Shown piece by piece: positions 10,217 to 58,089 of a stretch of 64,000 nt of DNA (positions are counted from its first letter, which is position 1; every line of letters begins with the position of its first letter). This DNA comes from an uncultured Candidatus Binatia bacterium (lineage in GTDB: Bacteria > Desulfobacterota > Binatia > UBA9968 > CAXXLF01): NCBI GenBank assembly GCA_965218425.1, contig OZ244621.1, positions 2,048,001 to 2,112,000 of the forward strand, given 5' to 3'. The position numbers and the translations under genes are program-made. The notes below the pieces were generated by a model. The model worked only from the letters and a program-made list of their open reading frames with translations, did no database searches and had not been told where the DNA came from.

Positions 10217-10651
10217 GTGATGAACTTGCCGTTTTTGACCCGCTACAGTACAAGCCTCTGGATTCGGTTTCTCCGCTTCAACCTCCACTCCGGTAAGAAG
10301 CTCCAGGAGGATCTGGAGAAACAGGGACTCACCCCCCCGCAGTTTTATGTTCTGGCGACCATTGGCTATCTGGGAGGAGTCCCCTTTAACGAAATTGGTG
10401 CAAAAATGATGGTGACGGTGAGTAACCTGACAGGCATCGTGGACCGGCTGGAAGAAAAGGGAATCGTGGCCAGGGAGCGGGATAAACACGACCGTAGAGT
10501 GATCCACGTCAAACTTACAGAGAAGGGGAAGAAACTCTACAAGGTCTCCGTTGTTACTTTTGAAAATAGCGTGTCGAAATTCTTTTCCCCTCTAGATAGA
10601 TCCCAGCAAAAAGAGCTTTCCACCCTTTTGCGTAAATTGCTCGGCGCCTGA
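10217..10651 (+). CDS. MarR family transcriptional regulator
   Basis: LTPPQFYVL...SNLTGIVDRLEEKGIVARERDKHDRR winged-helix signature. Confidence 0.93.
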   Translation: MMNLPFLTRYSTSLWIRFLRFNLHSGKKLQEDLEKQGLTPPQFYVLATIGYLGGVPFNEIGAKMMVTVSNLTGIVDRLEEKGIVARERDKHDRRVIHVKLTEKGKKLYKVSVVTFENSVSKFFSPLDRSQQKELSTLLRKLLGA

Positions 10652-10679
10652 GACGACTCCTGCCCATAGGTTCCCATTG

Positions 10680-10735
10680 TTGACAATTGGTTAAAGGTCA
10701 AATAGTTTATATGTGATTATTTAACACGTTAACCT
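10680..10735 (+). promoter_or_regulatory. Sigma70 promoter with candidate MarR operator
   Basis: TTGACA(10680-85)-N17-TAGTTT(10703-08); palindrome TTAAC-AC-GTTAA at 10721-10732. Confidence 0.6.
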
Positions 10736-10854
10736 ATGGTCAGTGAGGCATGAATCTCCTTGATCCTGTAGTGAGGGAGGCCGTTAATTGAATTCCTTCA
10801 TGACGTTGCTACGGACGTAAGTTAATAATTTTTATACTAAGACGGTATAAAAAG

Positions 10855-11592
10855 ATGCGCAAAGAACCTCATTTTACGCCGGAGAGCTTGCTCAGTCGGA
10901 TCAATTTTAAGCCTGGAAGTCTGGGAACAATGGCACTCATACCCGGTCCGAAGGAGCGGGCCAAGATGCTGCTCGAAAATCTGGAGAATCCTTGTAAGAG
11001 CTTTACTTTCTTGGATCATGAGATGCATACGGGTTCGTGCAACGGGAAACGGGTGACCGTGGGAAATGGTGGGCGCTATGCGGCTGACACGGCCATCACA
11101 ACGGAACTACTCTGTGCAGGCGGTGTTGAATCGCTCATTCGAATAGGCAGCTGTGGAGCCTTGAATAGGAATGTGAAGATTGGTGACCTTGTCATCGTGA
11201 CAGGAGCCATTCGCGGTGAAGGCACATCGCCCTATTACGTGCCGCAAAATTTTTCAACTGTCCCCCATCCGGAAATCGTCCAGGTGCTGACTGAAGCCGC
11301 CAAAGCATTTGAGGTCACGACACACCTGGGCTGGGTGTATACAACAGATGCTTTGTTTCAAGAAACTCCGGAGCTCATGGACGGATTGGAGCGGCAGGGC
11401 ATCTCTGCCATTGATATGGTTACGTCATCTTTTCTCACCGTCGCTCAAGTTCGTAACAAAAAGGCGGGTGCCATCATGGCTGTTTCCGACGAGTGTTTCA
11501 GCGGGAACTATGGATTTCGCGACCCACGTTTTATCGATGCGGAAAACAAGATGATGGATGTGGCCTTCAAGGCCATCCAACTCATGAGTTGA
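10855..11592 (+). CDS. Nucleoside phosphorylase (PNP/UDP family), divergent
   Basis: LIPGPKERA, LIRIGSCGAL, AIRGEGTSPYY, TTDALF, VSD; canonical EME replaced by DMV. Confidence 0.85.
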   Translation: MRKEPHFTPESLLSRINFKPGSLGTMALIPGPKERAKMLLENLENPCKSFTFLDHEMHTGSCNGKRVTVGNGGRYAADTAITTELLCAGGVESLIRIGSCGALNRNVKIGDLVIVTGAIRGEGTSPYYVPQNFSTVPHPEIVQVLTEAAKAFEVTTHLGWVYTTDALFQETPELMDGLERQGISAIDMVTSSFLTVAQVRNKKAGAIMAVSDECFSGNYGFRDPRFIDAENKMMDVAFKAIQLMS

Positions 11593-11598
11593 CACCCC

Positions 11599-13107
11599 AT
11601 GGAGCAAAAAAGCCCGTTGTTCGCACCGGTGATCTGGGAAGGCGATCACTTCAGGATACTGGACGAGACCCTTCTCCCTTGGGAAACACAATACGTTACG
11701 GTAAACGAGGTGAGCCAGGCCATTGGCGCCGTGAAGGAGATGAAGACGCGGGCATTTGGCCAGGTGTTAACTTTTCTTTACTCTGCCGCTTTGATGGCGC
11801 GAACCACGAAGGAACGAATCCCCGAAGAGCTTGGAGGCCGCCTCAAAGAATTAGCCAATCGATTTTCGGAAGCTCGCCCGACCTTTAACTTTAAAAGGCA
11901 TACCGTCTTCTTTGATGAGTGCTTGAAAGAATTCCCCGCTGGTGAGGAGGTGGGGACCTGGTTGGAAAACAAGATCCATGAACGGATCGCAACGATTCTT
12001 AAGGCCAGAGACGGTAGAGCGAAGAGGGTTGCCCAATTGCTACCCAGTTCCTGTCGGCTCATGACCCATTGCAATATCAGCGGTGAGCTGGTGGCCATAG
12101 GCGAGTACTGCAAAGCCATGGGAAAGGATTTTAATGTTATTGCGACGGAAACCCGACCCTATCTTCAAGGGTCCCGGCTGACCGCTTGGGAACTGGCTCA
12201 GTCCGGCATTGGCGTGAAATTGATCCCTGACTGTGCCACTGCGCAGGTCATGTCCAAAGGGGAGGTAGATGCGGTGCTTGTGGGTTCAGATCGATGCGCG
12301 CAAAACGGTGATATCGTCAATAAGGTGGGAACCTATCCCCTTGCCTTGATGGCGAAGGAATACGGTATCCCGTTTTACGCGCTGGTCCAGGATCCTGGCC
12401 ATTTACCCGCGGGTAGATATGTTTCCATTGAAGAGCGACCCGTGGCCGAGTTGCTTAACTTCCAGGGTCGTTCCATTACTCTCGAAGGGGTCCGGGGAAG
12501 ATATCCTGCCTTTGATGTAACCCCTGCGGTTCTCATCTCCTATATGATCCGTTATGACGGAGTCTACACACCCGCGAGCTTTAGGGAGAAGTTTCAGCAA
12601 GGCTCTTCAGAAGGGGGAATTGAAACGAGGGGCAAAAAGCGGCTAGTCATCGTTTACGGTGTCCCGCGCAGCGATGACTATGCCCAGCTTTCCCACACCC
12701 TCAGGGATGAACAGGCGGATGGTTTTTTAATACCCGAAATGCGCCCCCAACTTTGGGGGGCCCAGGAGGTTGCACGAGAACTCATACAACGGGGAATGTC
12801 CACCACCCTGATCTCAGATAATATGATGGGTATCTTCTTTGCCCAGAAAGAAATTCGATGTGTTTATCTCTTTTATCAAAAGCTTGATGAGATAGGACCG
12901 GTGGGAATTTGTGGATCTTTGCTGACCGCACGTCTTGCGCAGGTTCACGAAATACCCGTAAAGTTGCTCAGATCTGGAGAGACCCAACAGCGGCCATTGG
13001 ACGACACCGTGACCACTTTTGTGGGGAAACGGGTTTGCCCGGAAGGAGTATCGCCTTATCCCATTGAGAAAGAAAGGATACCCTGGGCCCTGTTAAAGAA
13101 TACTTGA
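11599..13107 (+). CDS. MtnA/eIF-2B family sugar-1-phosphate isomerase with an extra degenerate C-terminal domain
   Basis: THCN, ETRPYLQGSRLTAWEL, DRCAQNGDIVNKVGTY, IEER, PAFDVTP; extra ~160 aa containing EMRPQLWG...ELIQRGMSTTLISDN. Confidence 0.85.
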   Translation: MEQKSPLFAPVIWEGDHFRILDETLLPWETQYVTVNEVSQAIGAVKEMKTRAFGQVLTFLYSAALMARTTKERIPEELGGRLKELANRFSEARPTFNFKRHTVFFDECLKEFPAGEEVGTWLENKIHERIATILKARDGRAKRVAQLLPSSCRLMTHCNISGELVAIGEYCKAMGKDFNVIATETRPYLQGSRLTAWELAQSGIGVKLIPDCATAQVMSKGEVDAVLVGSDRCAQNGDIVNKVGTYPLALMAKEYGIPFYALVQDPGHLPAGRYVSIEERPVAELLNFQGRSITLEGVRGRYPAFDVTPAVLISYMIRYDGVYTPASFREKFQQGSSEGGIETRGKKRLVIVYGVPRSDDYAQLSHTLRDEQADGFLIPEMRPQLWGAQEVARELIQRGMSTTLISDNMMGIFFAQKEIRCVYLFYQKLDEIGPVGICGSLLTARLAQVHEIPVKLLRSGETQQRPLDDTVTTFVGKRVCPEGVSPYPIEKERIPWALLKNT

Positions 13108-13125
13108 AGCGGGGCTATCGTATTG

Positions 13126-13716
13126 ATGAACACTATAGAGCGTGACATCATTTATTGGGGGCGAAGCCTTTATGAGCGCAAGCTCATCACCGGTTGGGGC
13201 GGCAATATCAGCCGGCGTATGGGCAAGAATCGTTTCTTAATCACAGGAAGAAATTCCCCGCTGGGGTTTTTGACGCCAAAGGACCTGGTGGAGATCAATG
13301 GAGAAGGTGCGCCGGTGAAAAAGATTCAGACACCTTCCAGCGAATCTCCCCTTCACCTGGCGGTCTACAAAGAAACGGACGCCATGGCGGTGATCCACGT
13401 CCATCCACCCACCATCGTGGTGTTTTCTCTTGCTAACGAAAGCTTCATTCCCTTGAGTTGGGAGGAGAGGTACATCCTTAAGGAAATCCCCGTTGTGCCC
13501 CAGCACACCCCTACCGTGAAGGACCCGACTCAAGTGGTGGAAGTGATACGCAACCGCCCCATCGTCATCCTGAAAGGCCACGGGACGATTGCTCGAGGAA
13601 AGGATCTTAGGGATGCCTTTCTTCTGACCGATCTACTGGAGGGCGCGATCCACTGCCAGTTTTTGAAAGACGGGATGTCCTCGGAGGAACAGGGTTCTAT
13701 TGGGAAACAAGGTTAA
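13126..13716 (+). CDS. Class II aldolase/adducin family protein
   Basis: GGNIS, PSSESPLHLAVY, VIHVHP, LKGHG metal-binding motifs. Confidence 0.9.
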   Translation: MNTIERDIIYWGRSLYERKLITGWGGNISRRMGKNRFLITGRNSPLGFLTPKDLVEINGEGAPVKKIQTPSSESPLHLAVYKETDAMAVIHVHPPTIVVFSLANESFIPLSWEERYILKEIPVVPQHTPTVKDPTQVVEVIRNRPIVILKGHGTIARGKDLRDAFLLTDLLEGAIHCQFLKDGMSSEEQGSIGKQG

Positions 13717-13734
13717 TTGAGGGAGGATTTTACC

Positions 13735-15267
13735 ATGGCGATTGATTCCAACCAAGCGGGATTTTTTGTTGGAGAAATATTAGAGCATACTGCCAAGCGA
13801 TACCCGGACAAGACCGCATTGATTGCCAAGGAGGGGGAGTTGACCTTCTCGCAGGTGAATGAGAAAGCCAGTTGGATCGCAGGTCATCTGCAGGCGGAAG
13901 GGATCAAGCCGGGCGACCGTGTCGGTTTGTTCCTGCTCAACTCCATTGCCTTTGCCCTCTGCTACTACGCGATCCAAAGGATTGGAGCGGTCTCCGTAGT
14001 CTTGGATGCACGTCTAAAGGGAAAAGAGCTTTCCGGGGTTCTGCAGGATGCCGACCTGAATCTTTGTATTACCCACCAGCGTCTCATGCCTGAGATCTCG
14101 CCCATTGTGGCGGAGCTAAAAAAGGTCCCACTATGGGCGGTTGAGGGTGAAGGAGAGCAAGCGTTTGAAAAAAGACTATCGGCGCCACCAAAGAATCTTG
14201 TGCAGACCAAGATTACTCCCGACCAAGACGCGGTGATTCTTTACACCTCGGGGACCACAGGAGAGCCCAAAGGGGTGCTGTTGAGTTACGTTAACTTGAC
14301 TCAATTCCCCTATTGTATGGGCCAGGTTTGGAAGACCGACGAGAAGACCGTCTTGGGCTGCGTCCTCCCCATGTCACATATCTCGGGTCCCATCTACTGC
14401 AATGAGATCATCGACAAGGGAAGTACCATGGTCATCTTCGACCAGATGAATCCCATGACCCTATTGGAAGGAATTCAAAAGCACCGGGTCACCTTCTTCC
14501 ATGGCATCCCTATAATCTTCCAGCTCCTCTTAGGTGTCCCCAATCTGAAATCCTATGACACCAGCAGCGTTGAGATCGTTGGCATGATGGGAATGTCGGT
14601 CCCGTTGCCGCTCATGCGTGCCTTCAAGGGCGCACAACCTCACATTAAAGCGATGCAGGGTTACGGTCTCACGGAAACTTCGCCTCTGATAACGGGCACT
14701 GAAATTCCAGACGCGGATCAAAAACTGGGCAGCATCGGTAAACCGGTTCCTGGAATTGAAGTAAGGATCATCAATGAAAAAGGTGATGACGTAGGTGAGG
14801 GAGAGGAAGGAGAGATTATTACTCGGGGTCCACATGTGATGAAAGGGTACTTCCGCAAAGCCGACGCCTCAGCGGAGAGAATACGCAAAGGGTGGCTCTA
14901 CACCGGCGATATCGCAAGGCGCGAAGGGGACGGCTATTTTTATCACCTGGGAAGAAAGGACGACATGATCATTACCGGGGGGATGAACGTCTATCCGGCC
15001 GATGTTGAGAACATATTGTATGAATTCCCACAGGTGCAGGAGGCAGTGGTTTTTCCCATTCCGGAGCCCAAGAGAGGAAACGTCATTGGAGCGGCCGTGG
15101 TGCCGCGCCAGGGACAGTCCCCAAATGCAAAAGAGATTCTTGCCTATTTGCGTTCGAATCTGGCGGCTTTTAAGGTGCCTCAAGAGGTGAAGATCCGTGA
15201 GTCCCTGCCCCGAACCTCCACCGGCAAAGTCATTCGAGATGCCTCCGTGCTGCTCTCGGACGGCTAG
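13735..15267 (+). CDS. AMP-forming acyl-CoA synthetase (ANL superfamily)
   Basis: YTSGTTGEPKG, QGYGLTETSP, TGD, GRKDDMI, LPRTSTGKV; GGAGG RBS before ATG 13735. Confidence 0.9.
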   Translation: MAIDSNQAGFFVGEILEHTAKRYPDKTALIAKEGELTFSQVNEKASWIAGHLQAEGIKPGDRVGLFLLNSIAFALCYYAIQRIGAVSVVLDARLKGKELSGVLQDADLNLCITHQRLMPEISPIVAELKKVPLWAVEGEGEQAFEKRLSAPPKNLVQTKITPDQDAVILYTSGTTGEPKGVLLSYVNLTQFPYCMGQVWKTDEKTVLGCVLPMSHISGPIYCNEIIDKGSTMVIFDQMNPMTLLEGIQKHRVTFFHGIPIIFQLLLGVPNLKSYDTSSVEIVGMMGMSVPLPLMRAFKGAQPHIKAMQGYGLTETSPLITGTEIPDADQKLGSIGKPVPGIEVRIINEKGDDVGEGEEGEIITRGPHVMKGYFRKADASAERIRKGWLYTGDIARREGDGYFYHLGRKDDMIITGGMNVYPADVENILYEFPQVQEAVVFPIPEPKRGNVIGAAVVPRQGQSPNAKEILAYLRSNLAAFKVPQEVKIRESLPRTSTGKVIRDASVLLSDG

Positions 15268-43366: not shown

Positions 43367-43806
43367 AAGGTTAATCTCGTTAAGACCGTCGGGTCCCAAT
43401 CTAGTGGAAAGGCAGCAAGACGGTGAGGAAAGTGAGCCCTGAGATCGAACACATTCGATTTCCCTCGTACGGCCTGCTGAACTAACTCTATCCATATCAT
43501 ATTAGATCTTTGTTGACACCCACCAGGATGAGCAGGTAGTTTCCCGACTTGAACAGGTGGTTCTTGAAGTAAGTGGCCATAAGGCGACCGAGGGGTGAGT
43601 TCTGAAGAGCGCGGGCACAGGAACGTAGAGGTTGCGTTCAGGCCCGGGCGGCGAAAATCGCCGCCTTTGGAGTGGACAGGGTGGTGGCCTGCAAGGCACT
43701 GGCGCATTGCCCGGACTCGCAAGAGCTCGGCCCGAGGGTGCCCGGCTACATCATTTGTCTAGATACTGACGAACTCGATAGCTCAGTTAAAGGGAGGTTC
43801 TTCGTG

Positions 43807-45219
43807 ATGAAGATGTTTTTGGCAGGTCAGTGGGTAGAAAAACCGAGAGTGATTGAGGTGAAAAATCCCTACGACGGCACATTGATCGACACGGCGCCCA
43901 GAGGGGAAGGGTCCGATGTAGAACGTGCACTTGCCTTCGCCGAACAGGGGGCCAAGGTCATGGCGAGGCTGTCCGCCTATGAACGCTGGCGAATCCTCAG
44001 GAAAACGGCCGATCTGATTGCGGCGCGCACCGAAGAATTGGGACAGATAATATCGAAGGAAGAGGGGAAGATCATCGCCGAAGGTCGCGCAGAGGCTGGA
44101 CGAGCGGTGGAGACTCTTATGGGTTCGGCGGAGGAGGCAAAGAGGATCCATGGAGAGACCATCCCCCTGGATGGGGACCCAAGCGGTGTCAAAAAGCTAG
44201 GATTTACCCTGAGGGTGCCGTGTGGCGTGGTGGCGGCCATTAGCCCCTTTAACTTTCCCTTGAATTTGGTTTGTCATAAAGTTGGGCCAGCCCTGGCCGC
44301 GGGCAACTCGGTAATCATCAAGCCGGCAACGGATACGCCCCTCTCTGCCCTCAAACTCACCGAGATCCTCCTGGAAGCGGGGCTCCCCCCTGAAGGCGTA
44401 CAGTGCATTACCGGCCCGGGCGGCGAAATCGGTGATCGGCTGGTTTCAGATCATCGAGTGCGCAAGATTACCTTTACGGGCAGCCGGGACGTTGGGGAGC
44501 GGATTTGCCGCCTTGCGGGAATCAAGAAGGTGACCATGGAACTTGGTTCCAATTGTCCTTTGATCGTCATGCCGGACGCCGACCTGGAAAAAGTGGCTGC
44601 GGCCGTCGCTTCCACCGGGTATGCCAATGCCGGCCAGGTTTGCATTTCAACCCAGAGGGTCATCACGGCGGGCAAGGTCTATAGTGATTTTCTCAAAGTC
44701 TTAAATTCCAGGGTGGACGGCCTCACGACTGGAAACCAACTGGATGAAAAGACCAAGGTGGGTCCCATGATTCGTGAGGATGACGCCATCCGTGTGGATC
44801 AGTGGGTGCGGGAGGCCGTGGGAGGCGGGGCCCGCGTAACGGCAGGTGGGCGGAGACAGGGCGCCGTATACGCACCTACGGTGGTGGCCGATGTCAATCC
44901 GGAAATGCGAATTTCTTCCGATGAGCTGTTCGGCCCGGCGGTGGCGGTGACACCCTTCGAATCCATTGAGGAAGCCCTAGAGCTGGCAAACCGTACCGTC
45001 TACGGTCTGTCCGCCGGCATATTTACCGAAAACCTTGACTGGGCCATGAGATTCGCCCGGGAAGCGGAGTCGGGAAATCTTCACATCAACTGGGGCCCCC
45101 AATGGCGCGCGGACCTAATGCCTTATGGAGGGTTAAAGGATTCGGGATTTGGCAAAGAGGGACCCCGTTACGCCGTGGAAGAGATGACGGAACTAAAAAT
45201 GGTGGTCTTTCACCTATAG
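43807..45219 (+). CDS. NAD(P)-dependent aldehyde dehydrogenase
   Basis: PFNFP, FTGS, ELG, GQVCIS, ELFGP, YGGLKDSG; GGAGG RBS. Confidence 0.94.
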   Translation: MKMFLAGQWVEKPRVIEVKNPYDGTLIDTAPRGEGSDVERALAFAEQGAKVMARLSAYERWRILRKTADLIAARTEELGQIISKEEGKIIAEGRAEAGRAVETLMGSAEEAKRIHGETIPLDGDPSGVKKLGFTLRVPCGVVAAISPFNFPLNLVCHKVGPALAAGNSVIIKPATDTPLSALKLTEILLEAGLPPEGVQCITGPGGEIGDRLVSDHRVRKITFTGSRDVGERICRLAGIKKVTMELGSNCPLIVMPDADLEKVAAAVASTGYANAGQVCISTQRVITAGKVYSDFLKVLNSRVDGLTTGNQLDEKTKVGPMIREDDAIRVDQWVREAVGGGARVTAGGRRQGAVYAPTVVADVNPEMRISSDELFGPAVAVTPFESIEEALELANRTVYGLSAGIFTENLDWAMRFAREAESGNLHINWGPQWRADLMPYGGLKDSGFGKEGPRYAVEEMTELKMVVFHL

Positions 45220-45235
45220 CGCGGAGACTCTAACG

Positions 45236-46687
45236 GTGAAGGATATAGACCGGATAGCCAAGGAGCTGCTTGCTGTGGTTGGCAAGGACGGGGTTGTGGT
45301 GGACCCCGATGAGCTCAGGGTCTACGAAACGGATGGTTTGACTGTTTTTAAAGCCCGTCCAGACATCGTCGTTCTGCCGCGCTCTGCAGAGGAAGTTGGC
45401 AGGGTGGTGGAGGTCTGTCACCGAGAGCGATGCCCCTTCGTGGCGAGGGGCGCGGGGACCGGGTTGTCTGGGGGCGCCCTCCCGTTGGATGGTGGAGTCT
45501 TGATCGGTCTCAACCGTGTCAACCGGATCTTAGAAATCGACTTGAGGGATCAGCGCGCCGTGGTGGAGCCCGGTATGGTCAATATCTGGCTTACGAATTC
45601 TCTCGCACCGCGGAACTACTATTATTCTCCCGATCCGGCCAGCCAGACCGCATGCAGTATAGGGGGCAACGTGGCAGAAAACTCCGGGGGGCCCCGCACG
45701 CCGAAGTATGGCGTCACCACCAATCACGTCCTCGGCTTGGAAGTGATCCTCCCCACGGGCAAAGTGGTTCAAATTGGAGGAAAGACCTTGGATCCCCCTG
45801 GCTATGATTTGACCGGGGTCTTTGTGGGTTCCGAGGGGACCCTAGGGATTGCCAGTAAGGTAATCGTGCGTATTATGCGCAAACCGGAAGCGGTTCAAAC
45901 TCTGTTGGGCGTCTTCGAGACCATTGAAGATGCCTCCGCCGCCGTTTCCGGGATCGTGGCCCGAGGGATTGTTCCGGCAGCCGTGGAGATGATGGATAAC
46001 CTGAGTATACGGGCCGTAGAGAAGGGAGTGGGCGCGGGCTATCCCCTCAATGCGGGGGCGGTTTTACTCATCGAAGTGGACGGGCCGAAAGATGAAGTGG
46101 CGGCCGTGGTGGACCCCATAATTGAGGTCTGCCGAGAAAACCGAGTGCGAGAAGTGAGAGTGGCCAAAGATGAAAATGATCGATTGCAACTCTGGAAGGG
46201 TCGAAAATCCGCCTTTGCCTCAATGGGTCGGTTGGGTCCCGATTACTATGTCCAGGACACCGTCATCCCGAGGACGAAGCTCCCTCCCATCATGAAGATG
46301 ATCGAGGAGCTTTCCCGAAAGTATGGCCTGCGAGTTGCCAATGTGTTTCACGCAGGTGACGGCAACCTCCATCCCCTGATGCTCTACGACTCTCGCAACG
46401 AAGGGGAACTGCGCAAGGCGGAGGAAATGGGAAGCGAGATTATTAGGGCCTGTATCGATATGGGAGGGAGTCTCACGGGTGAGCACGGCATCGGGCTGGA
46501 GAAACGGGAATACATGCCCATGATGTACACGGATGACGATCTGGAGGCCATGGCCAAGGTCAAAAGAGTCTTTGACCCCGACGGATTGCTGAACCCCGGA
46601 AAGATTTTCCCCTCAACGAACTCGAATCACACGACAGGGATATCGACGCAAAGTGATATTTTGCACAGGGTGTTGGGACACCATTAA
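45236..46687 (+). CDS. glcD: Glycolate oxidase FAD subunit GlcD-like
   Basis: RGAGTGLSGG, PDPAS, GSEGTLG, FHAGDGNLHP, GEHGIG, LNPGK. Confidence 0.88.
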   Translation: MKDIDRIAKELLAVVGKDGVVVDPDELRVYETDGLTVFKARPDIVVLPRSAEEVGRVVEVCHRERCPFVARGAGTGLSGGALPLDGGVLIGLNRVNRILEIDLRDQRAVVEPGMVNIWLTNSLAPRNYYYSPDPASQTACSIGGNVAENSGGPRTPKYGVTTNHVLGLEVILPTGKVVQIGGKTLDPPGYDLTGVFVGSEGTLGIASKVIVRIMRKPEAVQTLLGVFETIEDASAAVSGIVARGIVPAAVEMMDNLSIRAVEKGVGAGYPLNAGAVLLIEVDGPKDEVAAVVDPIIEVCRENRVREVRVAKDENDRLQLWKGRKSAFASMGRLGPDYYVQDTVIPRTKLPPIMKMIEELSRKYGLRVANVFHAGDGNLHPLMLYDSRNEGELRKAEEMGSEIIRACIDMGGSLTGEHGIGLEKREYMPMMYTDDDLEAMAKVKRVFDPDGLLNPGKIFPSTNSNHTTGISTQSDILHRVLGHH

Positions 46688-46696
46688 GCGTCAATC

Positions 46697-48055
46697 GTGC
46701 ACTCTCAAAAGAAACTGCTGGGACGATTGAACGAAATTGTGGGCGAGGCGAATGTTGTGGCAGGTGATGGGGTTTCCGCCTGCGCTGTTGATGGAAAAGT
46801 GCCTCAGGCCATGGCCTTCCCGGCATCGGTGGAAGAAGTCTCAGCGCTCATGGCCTTTGCCTCGACTGAAGGGCTTAGGGTAACCCCGTGGGGGAGTGGA
46901 ACGAAGATCAGCCTCGGAACGGCTCCAGATGGAGTTGATCTTGTCCTTGGTCTTTTCCGCCTCAGCGCATTGGTGGCCCACGAACCGGCCGATATGACTG
47001 CCACCTTCCAAGCGGGCATCGCACTCAGAGAGGCACAGGAGATGCTCGCACATAGCGGACAGTTTATCGCCCTCGATCCCCCATATTTCGAAAAGGCAAC
47101 CATCGGTGGGATCTTGGCGACCAATTCCAGCGGGCCTCGGAGGCTTCGCTATGGAAGTGCCAGGGATCTATTGATTGCCGTCCGGGTCGTGCAAGCCGAC
47201 GGCAAGATCATCAAAGGCGGGGCGAAGGTGGTGAAGAGTGTTAGTGGCTACGACATGAATAAGCTTTTTATCGGCTCGCTGGGGACCTTGGGGATAATCG
47301 CGGAAGCCACCTTCCGGCTATACCCGGTTCCCAACGTTGAAAAGACCTGCCTGATTCCATTTGCTTCAGTGGATGGCGCATGTGAAGTGGTTGCCAGGGT
47401 TCTCGATTCTTCCCTGCTTCCCTCTGCCGTGGAGCTGCTCTGCCCCGTGGCCTCGCGTCTGGCGGTTGGTCCGGCGGGTCTTTCTTGGCCGCAAGATCGT
47501 TATGGCCTGGCGCTGGCCATCGGTAGCGTGAGTCCAGAGGCGGTTGACGCCCAGCTCGAAGGAGTGGCGCGGATCTCCGGAAATGATCAGGGCAACGAGG
47601 GGTACAGATTGGAGGGCCGGGACCATGATTCCTTCTGGCGGGCGACATGCGGGATTTCCATGGGAGATCACTTCCAAACCGTCCTCAAGTCAAGTGTCCT
47701 CATAAGTCGAGTAGCCGACGCGGTGAGGTTAGGGCAAAATTTGGCTGCGCACCTGGGTCTGGACGTTGCCATCGTAGCCGAGGCGGGTTCTGGAATCGTC
47801 CGATACCATTTTGCCCGTCAAGGGGACGCCTCCCTTGGGCTTCATCAAGGGGTCGGCGAAGCCGTGAATCAGCTTCGAACCTTCGCTCAAGACTGTGGAG
47901 GGAGCCTCGTCGTTACCGAGGCGCCGCCCGATGTAAAAGGTGATGTCGATGTCTGGGGTCCGGTGGGGAGCGCTCTTCTTTTAATGCAGGGGCTTAAAAG
48001 GCAGTTCGATCCAAAAAGAATTTTGAATCCGGGAAGATTCGTGGGAGGAATCTAA
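46697..48055 (+). CDS. glcE: Glycolate oxidase FAD subunit GlcE-like
   Basis: GPRRLRYG, GGAKVVKSVSGYD, FDPKRILNPGR; lies between glcD and glcF. Confidence 0.85.
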   Translation: MHSQKKLLGRLNEIVGEANVVAGDGVSACAVDGKVPQAMAFPASVEEVSALMAFASTEGLRVTPWGSGTKISLGTAPDGVDLVLGLFRLSALVAHEPADMTATFQAGIALREAQEMLAHSGQFIALDPPYFEKATIGGILATNSSGPRRLRYGSARDLLIAVRVVQADGKIIKGGAKVVKSVSGYDMNKLFIGSLGTLGIIAEATFRLYPVPNVEKTCLIPFASVDGACEVVARVLDSSLLPSAVELLCPVASRLAVGPAGLSWPQDRYGLALAIGSVSPEAVDAQLEGVARISGNDQGNEGYRLEGRDHDSFWRATCGISMGDHFQTVLKSSVLISRVADAVRLGQNLAAHLGLDVAIVAEAGSGIVRYHFARQGDASLGLHQGVGEAVNQLRTFAQDCGGSLVVTEAPPDVKGDVDVWGPVGSALLLMQGLKRQFDPKRILNPGRFVGGI

Positions 48056-48117
48056 CGCAAGACAGATAGCGGTAAGGCGCCGGTCGGTTCTGAGTAGCGA
48101 GTTTGTATACTACTTAG

Positions 48118-48680
48118 GTTCTCCTCGGGGAGCGATTCTCCGGCCGTGGGCAACAGGCCGGTGAATATCTGAAGCTTCACGTTCGATGCCCACGGCCTTA
48201 CGTCTCGCTCCCCTGCGTCGCTGATTGCCATCGGGCGCAGGGGGCCCGGCGCGAAGAAAGGGAGACGTCCGATACTGGAGGTTCGAAGCGCATTGGCATG
48301 ACGGATAAAATGACGCGGCCTCGAGGCATGAACCTGTCGGCTCCCGCTGAGGGCAGGCCCCCGAGCCCAGAAATTCGCGGTTTTGTAAACGGCGCGCTGA
48401 GCGGGTTTGGGGCTGAACGCTGAGGGCTGGACCAAGAGCGCCAAGAATAGATTTCAATACAAATTCGAATAACCAAAGTACAAAACAAAAGTATCAACCG
48501 GTTTGTCTTAAGTAGCCGTCTTTTCGTACTTGCAAGAAATGTCAGAGCGCTTGTTCAATGTTTTGAGCATTAATCATTTGAGATTGTGGAATTGTTTAGG
48601 AATTCGTGCTTCGAGTTTGGGATGTTGACTCGAGGCGGTCTTCGCGCGGAATACTTTAGCGAGGTCGTTCTGTTTAACAT
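48118..48680. repeat. Non-coding insert of palindromic MITE-like elements between glcE and glcF
   Basis: Nested inverted repeats; 39-nt motif shared with 51752-51790; heptamer element shared with 36305-36495. Confidence 0.55.
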
Positions 48681-48703
48681 CCAATCGGCAGAGAGCTAAA
48701 AAT

Positions 48704-50005
48704 ATGGACCAACGTGAGCAGCCCGCAAGCGCCTTCCATCGGCTGGACCGGCCTGACTCCGAGCTCTACTTGGACTGTGTGCACTGCGGATTCTGTCTTC
48801 CCGCCTGTCCCACCTATCTCGTGCTCGGTAACGAGATGGACAATCCGAGGGGGCGCATCTATCTCATCCGGGCGGCTTCAGAGGGTAAGATCAAGATCAC
48901 CGACAACTTCGTCAAGCATATGGATCTCTGTCTGCTCTGTCGTAATTGCGAGACGGCCTGTCCCTCCGGGGTGAAGTTTGGTTTCCTTATGGAGTCGGCC
49001 AAGGGGCAAATTGAAACCCATTATAAGTACGCTCCTGTGGAACGATGGTTCCGTGAATTCATCCTCGGCACCTTTACCCACATAGGTCGTTTAAACGCCA
49101 TGAGCAGACTGCTGCGTTATTATCAGAGATCTGGACTCCAGAGAGTAGTGCGGAGCTCTGGGTTATTGAACCTGTTGGGCCGGGCGGGTCGGATGGAAGC
49201 CCTTCTTCCTCCCGTTGCCAAAGTGAGCGAGGATCTGCCTGCGGTGATGCCTGCCCGAGGTGAGAGCCGTGGCCGGGTGGGTCTCCTGCTGGGATGCGTC
49301 CAACGTTATTTTTTCCCCGGGGTGAATATTGCAACGGCGCGGGCCTTGAGGGAGTACGGGTATGACGTCGTGGTGCCGAAGCGGCAGGGCTGCTGCGGCT
49401 CGCTTCTTGTCCACGAAGGCGCGAGGGAAAGGGCCAAGGAGTTGGCAAAGAAAACCATGGATGTCTTTGAACAGTCGGGAGTGGACATGATCGCAGTCAA
49501 CGCTGCGGGGTGCGGCTCGGTTATGAAAGAGTACTGGGAACTGTTCCAAGGCGACCCGGCCTACTCTCAAAGGGCCGAAGCCTTTAGTAAGAGGGTGTTT
49601 GACGTGTCCCAGATCCTGGCCCAACAACCCCTTGCCGTGGGTCTTGGAAGGCTTGACCTTACGGTCACCTATCATGACGCCTGCCATCTCGCCCATGGGC
49701 AGAGGGTTAGGCAGGAACCCAGGTCCCTCTTGCAGGCAATTCCCGGGCTTCGACTCGTGGAGCTTAGGGAGTCTGACTTCTGTTGTGGTAGCGCAGGAAT
49801 CTACAATCTACTTCACCCGGAATTGGCCCAGGAGTTCCTCCATAGAAAGATCGAGCGAATCAAAGAAACGGGCGCCGATGTGGTGGTGAGCGGTAATCCG
49901 GGTTGCTCTCTCCAGATGGAAATGGGCCTGAAACAACAGGGCATGAACCTTGCGGTGCTGCATCCAGTGGAGCTTATCGACCGGTCGTTACATGGCAAGG
50001 GGTGA
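48704..50005 (+). CDS. glcF: Glycolate oxidase Fe-S subunit GlcF-like
   Basis: CVHCGFCLPACP, CLLCRNCETACP, two CCG domains. Confidence 0.88.
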   Translation: MDQREQPASAFHRLDRPDSELYLDCVHCGFCLPACPTYLVLGNEMDNPRGRIYLIRAASEGKIKITDNFVKHMDLCLLCRNCETACPSGVKFGFLMESAKGQIETHYKYAPVERWFREFILGTFTHIGRLNAMSRLLRYYQRSGLQRVVRSSGLLNLLGRAGRMEALLPPVAKVSEDLPAVMPARGESRGRVGLLLGCVQRYFFPGVNIATARALREYGYDVVVPKRQGCCGSLLVHEGARERAKELAKKTMDVFEQSGVDMIAVNAAGCGSVMKEYWELFQGDPAYSQRAEAFSKRVFDVSQILAQQPLAVGLGRLDLTVTYHDACHLAHGQRVRQEPRSLLQAIPGLRLVELRESDFCCGSAGIYNLLHPELAQEFLHRKIERIKETGADVVVSGNPGCSLQMEMGLKQQGMNLAVLHPVELIDRSLHGKG

Positions 50006-53786: not shown

Positions 53787-54658
53787 AGTTAACGCGAGCC
53801 CCCGTGGATTGCCTTTTCGGGGACTTGTCCTATCTGGCGCTTCTTCAAGCACTTGCGCCGCTCCACACATAATCCCCGATTCTCTGTCTCGAAAATAAGC
53901 TTCTGGAGTGCACTTGCAACCGGGGGGGTGCGCACTGATATCTAAAATATCATTTACTGATTCTCCTATCCTCCTTTTTTCGAGCCGCCTTGTTTAACAC
54001 CCCGGTTGCATACGGTCACCCGAAATCGCTATCCCCCAGTAAACAACGATGGTGACCGAAGTCTCGATACCAGAAGGCGGCCAGCTCCAGTGGGAGGGGC
54101 TTCGGTCCTTTATATCATCATGACCGTCCCCTCCTGGGGCGTCTGAGATGCAGGTTGGCCGGGGCGACTTAGGCGACTGCCTAACTAACCCCCAGGGAAG
54201 GATTGACGAACACAGGATCCAGCTTCAGATCCTCAGTTTTTCGTTCCCCAATCCCGGACAGGACGTCTTCATTAAATGTCTATTATTACCAAAATGGCTT
54301 GTGGTGCTCTCGTAGTGGGCTGTAGCGGCGTTTCTCCAGTAACAAGAGGAAGTCCGTCATAATCGCCCAATGCTCGTTGATGAGAGACTCAGGTTCGCGT
54401 ATGCTATCGTAGTTGAGAATCGTGCGGGCACCGACACAAGCGGAACGCTTCCCCGCATGCGGCGTACTGCTCAGGGTGTGCGAGACCCGGGGCTAACCAC
54501 ACGCTGCAGGACTCCTCCCCCGCGCTGGCACCTGGGCGGTCCGGAAATCACCGGGCTACCTTCCAGCAACAGAGACCGCATCGACCGGGGCCGCTGTGGC
54601 ACCACGGACGGAGCCGGACACGGTTAGTTAGTCGTTGGCGATGGAGGACGATGAGGCT

Positions 54659-56776
54659 ATGGCAATGAATACAGTCGATGAATCCGGCATTCTGGATCAT
54701 CTCGTAAAGGATGCGGGAAACTCCAAGGACATGAAAACGTCCTTTCGCGAGCGCTCGACAAGAGTCGGGGCGGTCTACACGATGACTTACAACCGAGCAA
54801 CGGTCGCCATCTACGACTTCGACCGCGAAAAGGCAGGCGGACTCCCCAAAGGCGGCTTTCTCATGGCTGCCAAACAGAGAGGGGATGAGAGCTTCATCTT
54901 GCTTCGGATTCTGAAGGAGGCTAGGCTCCCGAACACGACGGCCAACGATCAGACCCGCCAGCAAAGCGTTGAAAGCACCGCGAACGAGAGGCCGTGGCCA
55001 GAGGCATTGGACCCTTGGATGAAAGATCGGATGTCCATTCATGGAATCGAATGCCGCCTGCTCGGTACTTTCACTGCGGCGGAGGGCAGAGGGTACCAGT
55101 ATGCAGAAGACACTGACAACTACTTTGCTGTGAACGACTTGATGGTGTGGAAACCAGACCAGAAAACCCTTGACACGATCGTCAATTACCGGCATCGGCG
55201 AAATCCAATTTCAATGGGTGACAATCGCAGAAAGATCGGTCAAACCCGATTCGCGGCTGCCGAGAAGGACACTGCAACCAAGGCAGAGATGTGCCTGGAT
55301 CCGACAGACCTGCTCCAACGCCGGACCGTCTATCTGGGCATGTCGCGATCCGGGAAGTCGAACGCCATGAAGGTAACCGCGGAAGCGATCTATCAGCTCC
55401 GCGAGGCAAATCCGGAGAACAAAATTGGACAGTTGATCTTCGACCCCAACGGGGAGTATGCGCAGGACAATCTGCAAGACGGTCCAGGACTCCACAATAT
55501 CCACAAAGCCATCAACCGGCAAAGGAAAACCGAAGTTGAGACGTATGGACTTTTCCAGACGCCTTCGGATCCGGATCGGAAGATCATGAAGATCAACTTC
55601 TTCGGTGATCCTATTCCTCAGCAGTGGACGACTGCAGGGGTAAAAGCCGCACTCGATCAGATGCTCGCAGGCCGCGAGATCATCCAGGAGATAATGGCAG
55701 ACGAGAGCGCCCGGTACACGACCGCGTTCCGCGAAGTGGATCTCTCCGTCCCACCAACAGCTGACGCGGATCTGGGCGCCCAAATCCGGTACCGGAGGGC
55801 CGTGCTCGTGCATCAGACGGCGCTGGCCGCTGCGGGACTGGATCCACCACAATGGTTTCCGTCCATCAGCGGGCTCTTCAACAAGGATTTAATCTCAGCC
55901 ATGAAGGGAGCTCAGAACCAAGATAGCGATCACAGCGTCAAATACGACCAAGCTTCAACGATCTTGGAGTCGGCAGGAAAGAAAAATGGCCAAGTATCTT
56001 GGAATCAGTTGGAGACAATTTTCAGTGCGCTCAACCAGTTCATCAGTGACAAGCAGAGCTACTACGTGCGCTTTGAGACCGATTACATTCACAAATCGAA
56101 GAGCGGGGATAATTGGGCCGATCCGAAATTCAAGAATCTCCTTCGCATTTTCGAGACTCAGAATGGTCCTCGTTCCTTTCAGCGGGCTTATGAGCAACAT
56201 GACCCAAACGCTGCCAGAGATTTCGCGAATGATGTAGTCGAAGACCTACAGCACGGGAAGCTCGTAATCGTCGACCAGTCCACCGGGGACCCGGAGCAAA
56301 ACCGAAAGGCGGCAGAACGCATTATGTGGAGAGTGTTCCGCGCGCAACAGGAAGCCTTCAGAAATGCCGCGGGCACTGGGGACCTGAACGCAAACAAAGG
56401 CCACATCCTGGTCTATGTCGAAGAAGCGCACAACCTGCTTCCCCGGGCAAACGCCGCCGACAACCTGCGAACGGTGTGGGCGCGTTCGGCCAAGGAGGGT
56501 AGCAAGATGAACATCGGAATGGTGCTTGCTACACAGGCGCCAAGCTCAATCATGCCCGAGATTCTCAGCGAAACGGACAACTGGATTCTCGCTTACCTGA
56601 ACTCGGAGAACGAGCGCAGAGTGATTTCTGGATACATGGATTTTGAAGATTTTCTGGAACAAATCGGACAAGTTAGTGAGCCCGGTTTCGTGCGAATGCG
56701 CACGTTATCCCTCGCATATACCGTGCCTGTTCAATTTGACCGGTTTCGCCTGGACATTCCGGGTGTACAGGACTGA
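54659..56776 (+). CDS. HerA/DUF87-family ATPase with N-terminal HAS-barrel-like domain
   Basis: Walker A GMSRSGKS, IFDPNGEY, Walker B YVEEAHNL, AKEG, LATQAPS; start uncertain (54635-54665). Confidence 0.85.
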   Translation: MAMNTVDESGILDHLVKDAGNSKDMKTSFRERSTRVGAVYTMTYNRATVAIYDFDREKAGGLPKGGFLMAAKQRGDESFILLRILKEARLPNTTANDQTRQQSVESTANERPWPEALDPWMKDRMSIHGIECRLLGTFTAAEGRGYQYAEDTDNYFAVNDLMVWKPDQKTLDTIVNYRHRRNPISMGDNRRKIGQTRFAAAEKDTATKAEMCLDPTDLLQRRTVYLGMSRSGKSNAMKVTAEAIYQLREANPENKIGQLIFDPNGEYAQDNLQDGPGLHNIHKAINRQRKTEVETYGLFQTPSDPDRKIMKINFFGDPIPQQWTTAGVKAALDQMLAGREIIQEIMADESARYTTAFREVDLSVPPTADADLGAQIRYRRAVLVHQTALAAAGLDPPQWFPSISGLFNKDLISAMKGAQNQDSDHSVKYDQASTILESAGKKNGQVSWNQLETIFSALNQFISDKQSYYVRFETDYIHKSKSGDNWADPKFKNLLRIFETQNGPRSFQRAYEQHDPNAARDFANDVVEDLQHGKLVIVDQSTGDPEQNRKAAERIMWRVFRAQQEAFRNAAGTGDLNANKGHILVYVEEAHNLLPRANAADNLRTVWARSAKEGSKMNIGMVLATQAPSSIMPEILSETDNWILAYLNSENERRVISGYMDFEDFLEQIGQVSEPGFVRMRTLSLAYTVPVQFDRFRLDIPGVQD

Positions 56777-56781
56777 ACGCG

Positions 56782-58089
56782 ATGCCGTACGAGGATGAGC
56801 GGGCGGGTCTAGCGGCAATTCGGGCCATCGCCCAAAGTGGGGTAGTCGACGAGTTTCGTACCCGGATGGCTGAGCGCCATGACGGTACTTTGCCCGAGTC
56901 TCCGCCATTCCAACTCTGTTCTAGTAGAAGAGCGAGGACGCATGTTCTGGCTATTGATGGTTCGAATCTCTATGAGCCAATCCCCGGCGCCTTGCCGTGC
57001 ACCGAAGCCGGGCTGGTTTCCTTGGGCGTTGTGATCATCGATACACAAAAGCTTAGGACTTTGGAACGACTTCCGAACAGCGGGGCCGCGGATCCGAGGG
57101 AGCTGCAGAGCACGGAGAAAGGGGAGACCTGGGGAACGATGCTGCCTGGGCAGAATGCCGCGAGACAAGACGGAACCGGTCCGAGAATGTGGTTCAGGGA
57201 GATCATCAATCACGAACTTGAAAGTGCCAATCTTGGCGGTGAGAGCTTCGCCGAGACGCTGCACGCGCTTCTCCGCAATAGCAGAGAGGTCACATGTCCA
57301 GACCCGGACTGCGGGTCCCGAGTTCGCCTCCCCGAACCGGAACAGTCGGGCTCCTGCCCGAAGTGCAAAGGTCCCGTGTGGCTCGCAGACGGGCTGCGAA
57401 TTCACGAGCAGTTCGTTGAGAATCATCCGGTGGGCGAATGCCATGCGCGCTTCCGGGACACCCTGGAACTCCTCGCTCTTGTAAACTCACTCCGCCATCT
57501 TGTTAAGACCGAGCAGGGGCGTCGCGCCATTGCCAATACGGCATTCGTTATGGATGGTCCGCTTGCCGCCTTTGGGACCATTGCAGTTCTTTCCAAGGCC
57601 GTCAGGGGAGAACTGCGGCGTGTTCAGGAGGCGCTGGATGTCCACTCGTGTAGATCGGACTTGCTGGTAATGTCCGGTATCAAGAGCGGGCCGTTTGTGG
57701 AGCATGCTGCAGAACTCGACCGGGCACCTGAGCCTGGCCGGAGAATCCCACCGAACCACGTGTGGCTTCCAGACAATGGCTACATCCGGTCCCACATCAT
57801 TGCTGGAGCTTCGGAACAGTCGAAGCCGTGGGGCGAGCTGACGTATTTTGGGCGTCCTGTCGTCTTCAAGACTGTCAACGGCCAGCGACTCGTTCTCAAT
57901 CTTGCGCAGCCTGAAGCCGAACCACCACTCACTGAGGCCTCGCGCCCCCGCGTACTGGACGATGCCATTGCGACGGCGGGATCACTTGGTGTCGGCGCGC
58001 ACCAATTCCTTCCGCTTCGTCGCGTTCACGCCCAGGCCGCCATTCCGTTACGAAGCGGTACCGACCTCATCAAGAGTCTCGCACCTTGA
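56782..58089 (+). CDS. NurA-like nuclease with zinc-ribbon insert
   Basis: VLAIDGS, FVMDGPL, GIKSG, C-terminal His (RRVHAQAAI); CPDPDC...CPKC; begins 5 nt after the ATPase stop. Confidence 0.75.
   Translation: MPYEDERAGLAAIRAIAQSGVVDEFRTRMAERHDGTLPESPPFQLCSSRRARTHVLAIDGSNLYEPIPGALPCTEAGLVSLGVVIIDTQKLRTLERLPNSGAADPRELQSTEKGETWGTMLPGQNAARQDGTGPRMWFREIINHELESANLGGESFAETLHALLRNSREVTCPDPDCGSRVRLPEPEQSGSCPKCKGPVWLADGLRIHEQFVENHPVGECHARFRDTLELLALVNSLRHLVKTEQGRRAIANTAFVMDGPLAAFGTIAVLSKAVRGELRRVQEALDVHSCRSDLLVMSGIKSGPFVEHAAELDRAPEPGRRIPPNHVWLPDNGYIRSHIIAGASEQSKPWGELTYFGRPVVFKTVNGQRLVLNLAQPEAEPPLTEASRPRVLDDAIATAGSLGVGAHQFLPLRRVHAQAAIPLRSGTDLIKSLAP

Follow-up and report, generated by a model that had tools for sequence, protein, structure and literature searches.

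A conserved MarR-linked operon with phosphorylase, isomerase, aldolase and acyl-CoA ligase genes in a Candidatus Binatia bacterium and its tie to a B12-binding radical SAM family

We examined a 64,000-nucleotide stretch of DNA (the window; contig OZ244621.1 of assembly GCA_965218425.1, positions 2,048,001 to 2,112,000 of the forward strand) from an uncultured Candidatus Binatia bacterium, the genome assembly of which is a single 4.46-Mb contig. The window carries an operon coding for a MarR-family regulator, a nucleoside phosphorylase, an isomerase related to MtnA, a class II aldolase and an acyl-coenzyme A (CoA) ligase of the ANL superfamily (Table 1). All five open reading frames (ORFs) were found on the plus strand at the coordinates given by an initial annotation made from the sequence letters. 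The genes for phosphorylase, isomerase, aldolase and ligase are separated by 6, 18 and 18 nt. The last of these gaps, which had also been read correctly, lies between the aldolase stop codon (13714–13716) and the ligase start codon at 13735, and the latter is preceded by a strong Shine–Dalgarno-like stretch (GAGGGAGG). Because of this short gap, the ligase is almost certainly co-transcribed with the other enzymes. The operon proteins all score below every curated NCBIfam cutoff, and for the regulator no NCBIfam equivalog reached its cutoff. Literature searches found no published description of the cluster, and the word "aldolase" occurs 0 times in a 2026 review of lipid radical S-adenosylmethionine (SAM) enzymes. 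We could confirm that the operon is real, conserved and uncharacterised.

Table 1. Features of the operon (positions in the window; aa, amino acids)
Feature	Position	Strand	Support and remarks
MarR-family winged-helix regulator	10217–10651	+	PF01047 61 bits (cutoff 24.6); 144 aa; GTG 10217, ATG 10220
Operon promoter and putative MarR operator	10680–10742	+	Inverted repeat and alignment of loci
NP-I (DeoD/Udp-type) nucleoside phosphorylase paralog	10855–11592	+	245 aa; PF01048 124 bits
MtnA-like aldose-1-phosphate to ketose-1-phosphate isomerase domain	11599–12603	+	Residues 1–~335 of 502; PF01008 176 bits
Extra C-terminal isomerase domain	12604–13107	+	Residues ~345–502; degenerate IF-2B half-domain duplicate
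Class II (zinc) aldolase, short form, 196–197 aa	13126–13716 (alternative start 13123)	+	PF00596 135 bits; without SCP2
ANL-superfamily acyl/aryl-CoA ligase, 510 aa from ATG	13735–15267 (ORF from 13717)	+	PF00501 286 bits, PF13193 66 bits

To describe conservation, we scored 91 loci (the window, 10 genomic and 80 metagenomic ones) for the presence of each gene; a locus entered the count for a gene only if its contig was long enough to show it. The order phosphorylase–isomerase–aldolase–ligase is kept in all 10 full-length genomic relatives (51–88% identical), eight of which also show the MarR gene; the other five loci from the search for relatives are ordinary Bacillota MtnA genes without these neighbours. 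The ligase is co-conserved with the other enzymes: its gene directly follows the aldolase gene in 54 of 55 loci, and in the remaining locus it lies 1.1 kb away. A MarR gene is found upstream on the same strand within 2.2 kb in 39 of 40 loci. Three further components are common among the relatives, namely a CCG/4Fe-4S protein encoded before the phosphorylase (45 of 49 loci), a C-terminal extension of about 140 aa on the aldolase (69 of 73) and a small conserved protein, u107, encoded after the ligase (24 of 41). The window, its closest relative L001 and a third locus, L039, lack all three, and since these components are missing, the window represents the minimal five-gene core. By tblastn, the aldolase extension has no match elsewhere in the genome, u107 has one marginal match (E 0.008), which stems from an N-terminal extension of an ORF across the end of the ANL gene, and the best match to the CCG protein is 32% identical and falls within a different, 681-aa protein. 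Genes for a Mo-hydroxylase (2Fe-2S, molybdenum cofactor and FAD subunits) and a phosphopantetheinyl transferase (PPTase), each found downstream in about 10 loci, were set aside as lineage synteny because an opposite-strand gene separates them from the operon. A full cluster of the fused type (51–71% identical proteins) also occurs in a metagenome-assembled genome that bears a label from outside Binatia (Candidatus Acidiferrales), which could be a case of gene transfer or a binning or label issue.

The phosphorylase had been assigned to the DeoD/Udp type rather than to MtnP, and we reached the same assignment. Among NCBIfam models, that of uridine phosphorylase scores highest (108 bits, cutoff 280), followed by that of DeoD with 107 bits (cutoff 230), its closest PDB relatives are uridine and DeoD-type purine nucleoside phosphorylases (PNPs), and the 5'-methylthioadenosine (MTA) phosphorylase model TIGR01694 is absent among its 12 NCBIfam matches at E ≤ 0.001. 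The models for HpnG (TIGR03468) and futalosine hydrolase (TIGR03664) score 30 bits against a cutoff of 187 and 24.9 bits against a cutoff of 124.7, and a look-up in the ESM Atlas returned generic PNP_UDP_1 clusters only. Residues G31, R35, R96, S99 and D212 are invariant across 46 distinct orthologs; following work on E. coli PNP, we take the first four to be phosphate ligands and D212 to be the purine-side aspartate. Other motifs are altered, as had been stated for the first two enzymes of the operon. The DeoD-type E-M-E ribose motif reads D187-M-V189, and D-M-V is found in all 46 orthologs, with Val in place of the second Glu, which is presumably the ribose-binding residue of E. coli PNP. 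The residues aligned with His4 and Arg43 of the E. coli enzyme are Arg and Leu in the window protein. In the alignment of orthologs, the Arg43-equivalent position reads Leu, and position 15, the equivalent of His4 (which we assume to contact the 5' group), is Met or Leu in 40 of 46 proteins and Arg in the other six. Arg15 was dropped as an indicator of the reduced lineage, since three loci with the CCG protein have it as well; at least two of these retain the SCP2-type aldolase described below.

The isomerase scores 229 bits with the MtnA model TIGR00512 (cutoff 279) and 130 bits with the ribose-1,5-bisphosphate isomerase model TIGR00511 (cutoff 314). Its first 340 residues superpose on MtnA structures with a Foldseek TM-score (target) of 0.85 to 1t9k, and alignment to 1t9k and 2yvk indicates that the catalytic Cys and Asp of MtnA are retained; these active-site roles we take from work on B. 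subtilis MtnA. A clade-specific deletion of seven residues follows the catalytic Cys and adjoins the Cys loop, and the protein reads TRAFGQV where canonical MtnA has RGAPAIG. The initial annotation overlooked that the 502-aa protein carries an extra C-terminal domain. This domain repeats, in degenerate form, the second half of the IF-2B Rossmann-like domain (self-BLASTP E 2e-6), matches PF01008 weakly and has strongly conserved motifs of its own (PEMRPxLWG, ISDNMMG and GICGSLL). When aligned to the N-terminal domain, it is devoid of the LQG, GxDR and NK motifs found there, in which we assume the catalytic Asp of MtnA and the Gln and Lys that bind phosphate to lie. An AlphaFold model of the whole isomerase has a pLDDT of 91 and a pTM of 0.91. 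A word-index search with the extra domain matched 285 proteins; among the 120 matches listed, which are either named methylthioribose-1-phosphate ("MTR-1-P") isomerase or without a name, most are 480–530 aa long and the rest look like shorter fragments. Searched against 1.84 billion cluster representatives, a profile of the domain gave 92 hits at E ≤ 1e-10, mostly stand-alone proteins of 145–170 aa with a few fusions of about 500 aa. Since most homologs stand alone and few are fused, the fused isomerase is, by this comparison, the derived, Binatia-type state of a two-subunit enzyme.

In the aldolase, the Glu, H-x-H and His positions that make up the zinc His triad and the catalytic Glu have aligned counterparts in fuculose-1-phosphate aldolase (2fk5). 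A score of only 46 bits is reached with 6btd, a B. thuringiensis entry that we take to be DrdA, and the haloarchaeal ribulose-1-phosphate aldolase model NF053831 matches weakly (59 bits, cutoff 300). The extension that most related aldolases carry, and that the window protein lacks, matches SCP2-type PDB entries exclusively (best E 2.4e-7). Its structural model superposes on T. thermophilus SCP2 (2cx7) with a TM-score of 0.84 and a root-mean-square deviation of 1.6 Å and also resembles UbiJ and alkylsulfatase SCP2 domains, so that the extension is a true SCP2 lipid-binding fold. The ligase translation contains YTSGTTGEPKG and a C-terminal GK. Its best NCBIfam model is NF004837 (421 bits, under the cutoff of 476), which leaves it without a specific subfamily; it scores best with long-chain-fatty-acid–CoA ligase models, and among solved structures a feruloyl-CoA synthetase and fatty-acyl-CoA synthases come closest to it. 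By sequence, it resembles medium/long-chain and aryl ligases.

In the whole genome, the IF-2B family has three genes and PF01048 has two. One member of each is a genuine housekeeping enzyme encoded elsewhere, namely MtnA (TIGR00512, 428 bits, cutoff 279) and MtnP (TIGR01694, 316 bits, cutoff 275), and the operon isomerase and phosphorylase are paralogs of these two. The operon phosphorylase is the only DeoD/Udp-type phosphorylase of the genome. Further PF01048 phosphorylases or nucleosidases were present in six of six module genomes checked (this genome and five others). The third IF-2B paralog (C1:1392460–1393461, 333 aa) adjoins ligA and falls under all NCBIfam cutoffs. Class II aldolases are represented in the genome by 13 paralogs. 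An operon at C1:1855833–1860608 codes for an aldehyde dehydrogenase (486 aa), an ANL ligase (515 aa), a class II aldolase (232 aa) and a 330-aa protein of unknown function; its logic is related, but it has neither phosphorylase nor isomerase.

A palindrome had been reported in the operon promoter, and we find there a 14-nt inverted repeat with arms at 10681–10694 and 10729–10742. The promoter consists of TTGACA (10680–10685), a 17-nt spacer and TAGTTT, with TTAAC-AC-GTTAA half-sites downstream. A generic promoter scan did not list the site at 10680. In 42 loci, which comprise 32 distinct sequences, marR is followed by a promoter of the form TTGACA-N16/17-TATAAA followed by GTTAA-N4-6-TTAAC-like half-sites. 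The MarR gene and a palindromic putative operator are both found at the operon promoter, and MarR would bind this operator. We considered a riboswitch in the leader of about 110 nt (10743–10854) and discarded it after no Rfam match at E ≤ 1 was found between 9700 and 15800 of the window. In L001 (4329–5061), a group II intron without ORF lies between marR and the promoter (RF02005 91.7 bits, RF00029 47.9 bits); this insertion is absent from the window.

With the profile of the extra domain, we searched 401 genomes of the same GTDB phylum and found stand-alone homologs of about 155 aa, encoded as separate ORFs, in other families. We examined the neighbourhoods of these genes in 10 stretches from nine genomes. 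All 10 code for the phosphorylase (43–47% identical) and for the isomerase as an N-part and a separate C-part, and eight for the aldolase–SCP2 protein. Seven carry a gene for a 486-aa B12-binding radical SAM protein, which directly adjoins the phosphorylase gene in six cases and is separated from it by one gene in the seventh. An aldehyde dehydrogenase gene right after the aldolase gene occurs in five stretches, one to three ANL ligase genes occur in five, and an HAE3/MMPL transporter gene, mostly with genes for LolA-like and DUF1302 proteins, in six. Five further or overlapping stretches contain genes resembling those of type II polyketide synthases, with products that include two ketosynthases, an acyl carrier protein, cyclases, a short-chain dehydrogenase/reductase (SDR), an Amidohydro_2 protein, an aldehyde:ferredoxin oxidoreductase and a PPTase. 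In its composition, the transporter set corresponds to AmeABCD, an apolar monoterpene transporter of Castellaniella (PMC6394551). Genes for DUF1302 and DUF1329 proteins of Pseudomonas putida have fitness phenotypes on fatty esters, according to a preprint (bioRxiv 10.1101/2020.07.04.188060). In one extended cluster (L124, 16822–18933, plus strand), an adjoining gene codes for a 703-aa protein with an HD-CE domain and a C-terminal IF-2B-like stretch.

The genome under study has an ortholog of the radical SAM gene at C1:13879–15393, 2 Mb from the operon, the product of which is 45% identical to the extended-cluster enzyme over its full length (E 3e-133). The nearest models of this radical SAM family are BchE (213 bits) and HpnJ (152 bits), both far under cutoff. 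With ortholog thresholds of E ≤ 1e-45 for the phosphorylase and E ≤ 1e-110 for the radical SAM protein, the phosphorylase occurs in 15 of the 401 genomes, from nine families, and the radical SAM protein in 17, which include all 15 phosphorylase genomes. The two genes lie at most 5 kb apart in 10 of the 15, often directly adjacent. The 12 same-class genomes outside this order contain neither ortholog, and the radical SAM ortholog is present in four of the five Binatia-type relatives reached via their loci. The counts support that the module is tied to a single B12-binding radical SAM family, and this tie points to a SAM-derived nucleoside. In our genome, TRAP transporter genes (dctPQM) follow the radical SAM gene, and an Amidohydro_2 gene adjoins. 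We rejected TRAP adjacency as a general feature: it holds only here and in the genome of L001, and in other relatives the neighbours of the radical SAM gene vary (SDR, FAD oxidase, TenA-like protein or other genes). Near this locus, C1:24001–34000 holds three more Amidohydro_2 genes and genes for an ANL ligase, a zinc alcohol dehydrogenase, an arylmalonate-decarboxylase-like protein and an O-methyltransferase, and looks like an aromatic-acid metabolism neighbourhood.

The trio of phosphorylase, isomerase and aldolase is known from the dihydroxyacetone phosphate (DHAP) shunt, or 5-deoxyribose salvage, which converts a nucleoside to a sugar-1-phosphate, then to a ketose-1-phosphate and finally to DHAP and an aldehyde (PMC6079011). 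The same paper describes paralogous, dedicated 5-deoxyribose trios beside methionine-salvage genes in Bacillus and the conversion of 5'-fluoro-5'-deoxyadenosine to DHAP and fluoroacetaldehyde. The shunt (MtnP, or MtnN with MtnK/DrdK; MtnA/DrdI; Ald2/DrdA) shares three enzyme families, the operon order and the predicted chemistry with our operon, and the shunt-like chemistry put forward in the initial annotation is thereby supported. Unlike the shunt, the operon uses a DeoD/Udp-type phosphorylase instead of MtnP and an isomerase that scores under the MtnA cutoff, lacks seven residues at the Cys loop and has an additional domain or subunit; the module aldolase usually bears an SCP2 domain, the ANL ligase, MarR and mostly the CCG iron–sulfur protein are fixed members, and a single B12-binding radical SAM family accompanies the module. 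The fluoroacetate pathway of Streptomyces cattleya likewise uses a PNP, an isomerase and an aldolase to trim a SAM-derived 5'-substituted 5'-deoxyadenosine to DHAP and a substituted acetaldehyde, which an aldehyde dehydrogenase oxidises further to the acetate. In contrast to that pathway, a radical SAM enzyme would here take the place of the fluorinase at the start, and a CoA ligase follows. Part of the ribose also stays in the product of the hopanoid and futalosine pathways, as we propose here, and MqnB plays the base-removal role in the latter; the extended-cluster transporter belongs to the HAE3 type, as does hopanoid HpnN. These pathways have no counterpart of the isomerase and aldolase steps, and the radical SAM enzyme here differs from theirs in being B12-binding and BchE/HpnJ-like. 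In them, the radical SAM enzymes HpnH and MqnE add an adenosyl group to an olefin, and HpnG, a member of the PNP family, then removes the base (PMC13459092). We rejected endogenous hopanoid side-chain processing, as the genome has no squalene–hopene cyclase match and its best HpnH match reaches 42.8 bits against a cutoff of 225. Equivalogs of the non-carboxylating pentose bisphosphate pathway were also rejected, since the isomerase and aldolase models both stay below cutoff.

We propose, with slightly less than even confidence, that the operon does the trimming in a pathway of two parts, the first of which belongs to the radical SAM enzyme. This enzyme would use SAM to produce a 5'-substituted 5'-deoxyadenosine, most likely by addition of the 5'-deoxyadenosyl radical to its substrate. 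The DeoD-type phosphorylase would take off the purine to leave a 5-substituted ribose-1-phosphate, the MtnA-like isomerase would convert this to the ribulose-1-phosphate form, and the class II aldolase would release DHAP and an aldehyde, X-CH2-CHO, that retains ribose carbons 4 and 5. An aldehyde-oxidising enzyme encoded outside this operon would then produce the acid, and the ANL ligase X-acetyl-CoA. MarR would repress the operon at the palindromic operator until the acid or the CoA ester of the pathway appears. The trimming steps are those that family chemistry would predict, and the gene order of the extended clusters (radical SAM, phosphorylase, isomerase as two subunits, aldolase–SCP2, aldehyde dehydrogenase, further genes and ANL ligase) follows the proposed order of the pathway.

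Trimming of a radical SAM adduct is favoured by the observation that the module tracks one radical SAM family and not general radical SAM content, by the lipid-binding SCP2 domain that the aldolase usually carries and that acetaldehyde would not need, by the fatty-acyl and aryl type of the ligases, of which a cluster sometimes has several, and by the apolar-compound transporters. In addition, all genes of the compact cluster fit one linear pathway, and every module genome checked has other PF01048 enzymes. Several points weigh on the other side. The operon itself has neither a radical SAM gene nor an aldehyde-oxidising gene, and the link in this genome consists of co-occurrence only; moreover, the genomes counted are relatives of one another and not independent samples, so that the counts overstate independence. 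To our knowledge, the known adenosyl-adding enzymes HpnH and MqnE are not B12-binding, and most B12-radical SAM enzymes release 5'-deoxyadenosine, which is itself a possible substrate of the module. Paralogy alone proves little because dedicated 5-deoxyribose trios exist in Bacillus, and the lipid argument does not apply directly to the window, where the aldolase is without SCP2. Finally, the roles of active-site residues in the phosphorylase and isomerase are those that we presume from work on E. coli PNP and B. subtilis MtnA.

The main rival, which we regard as rather unlikely, is a dedicated DHAP shunt that disposes of 5'-deoxyadenosine and/or MTA from the linked B12-radical SAM enzyme and yields adenine, DHAP and acetaldehyde (or methylthioacetaldehyde), the aldehyde being then oxidised and esterified to CoA. 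It would agree with the normal release of 5'-deoxyadenosine by such enzymes, with the catalytic residues kept in phosphorylase, isomerase and aldolase, with the Met or Leu at phosphorylase position 15 in most orthologs, which suits a small apolar 5' group, and with the SCP2-free aldolase of the window. The trio is also the defining architecture of the known shunt, of which dedicated paralogous copies exist (PMC6079011). Disposal would leave unexplained, however, why the module follows a single radical SAM family rather than the general radical SAM load, why an SCP2 domain is attached to the aldolase if the product is acetaldehyde, and why the ligase, present in up to three copies per cluster, fits long-chain, feruloyl and fatty-acyl types. 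MtnP and MtnA are moreover already present in the genome, and in the operon isomerase the Cys loop is remodelled and a further domain is attached.

The initial annotation had instead suggested catabolism of an exogenous or otherwise made nucleoside with a carboxylate on its side chain or base, activated by the ligase and sensed by MarR. We consider this improbable. TRAP transporters import carboxylates, and the dctPQM genes follow the linked radical SAM gene in this lineage; the phosphorylase of this lineage has Arg at position 15, the operon contains no aldehyde dehydrogenase gene, and MarR regulators commonly sense organic acids. The TRAP link is nevertheless not kept in other Binatia relatives, and Arg15 is not diagnostic, being shared with the three loci that keep the CCG protein. 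In the extended clusters, the aldehyde dehydrogenase gene comes directly after the aldolase gene, or an aldehyde:ferredoxin oxidoreductase is encoded in the cluster, and the ANL ligases are encoded further along. This arrangement argues against activation of a carboxylate on the intact nucleoside and suggests that cleavage would come first and that the ligase would take the acid derived from the aldehyde fragment. In this lineage, the TRAP genes beside the radical SAM gene and the missing SCP2 domain together hint at a more polar, perhaps carboxylated substrate, which leaves part of the earlier idea standing. Catabolism of ordinary nucleosides, from ribose-1-phosphate to ribulose-1-phosphate and on to DHAP and glycolaldehyde, with a ligase that is incidental or acts on glycolate, appears very improbable. 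The operon does hold the sole DeoD/Udp-type phosphorylase of a genome with only two PF01048 members, its aldolase matches the haloarchaeal ribulose-1-phosphate aldolase model, albeit weakly, and an aldehyde dehydrogenase and a GlcDEF-like cluster are encoded 30 kb downstream. Against this stand the scores of the aldolase and isomerase models (59 vs 300 and 130 vs 314 bits), the replacement of the ribose-binding Glu by Val in all orthologs, and the radical SAM co-occurrence, SCP2 domain and transporter sets, which ordinary nucleosides would leave unexplained.

The flanks of the operon are unrelated to it: upstream lie genes for AddAB and a small holin_4-like ORF, and downstream a convergent LpxL-like gene and an Isc/NifS cluster. 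About 30 kb downstream, the plus strand of the window (43672–50005) codes for an aldehyde dehydrogenase, two FAD-linked oxidases (GlcD/GlcE-like) and a GlcF-like CCG/4Fe-4S protein, and resembles a cluster of the glycolate-oxidase type that includes an aldehyde dehydrogenase of its own. Still further along (54635–59285, plus strand), genes for a HerA/DUF87-like ATPase, a 435-aa protein without family and an N6/N4 DNA methylase stand in series and may form a defence island.

Even on the plainest reading, the operon defines a distinct and widespread clade of proteins annotated as "MtnA" and "uridine phosphorylase", names that are probably wrong, and it offers a clean set of promoter, operator and regulator for ligand testing. 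If the link to the radical SAM enzyme is functional, the module would add a fourth case to the three in which 5'-substituted adenosines are known to be used (hopanoids, futalosine and fluoroacetate). The nucleoside would here be merely a carrier that brings two carbons to another molecule, which could explain how some uncultured bacteria of soils and anaerobic habitats attack inert apolar or aromatic compounds or prime their polyketide synthases. A more speculative extension, which we hold to be possible though doubtful, is that the ribose of SAM serves as a two-carbon donor: an unactivated carbon of an apolar or aromatic compound would be adenosylated by the B12-binding radical SAM enzyme, and the adduct trimmed to R-CH2-CHO and converted to R-acetyl-CoA, with the reduced, MarR-controlled Binatia operon as a variant for soluble substrates. 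Such a route would amount to a new oxygen-independent activation of inert hydrocarbons, terpenes or aromatics, or to their use in priming polyketide synthesis.

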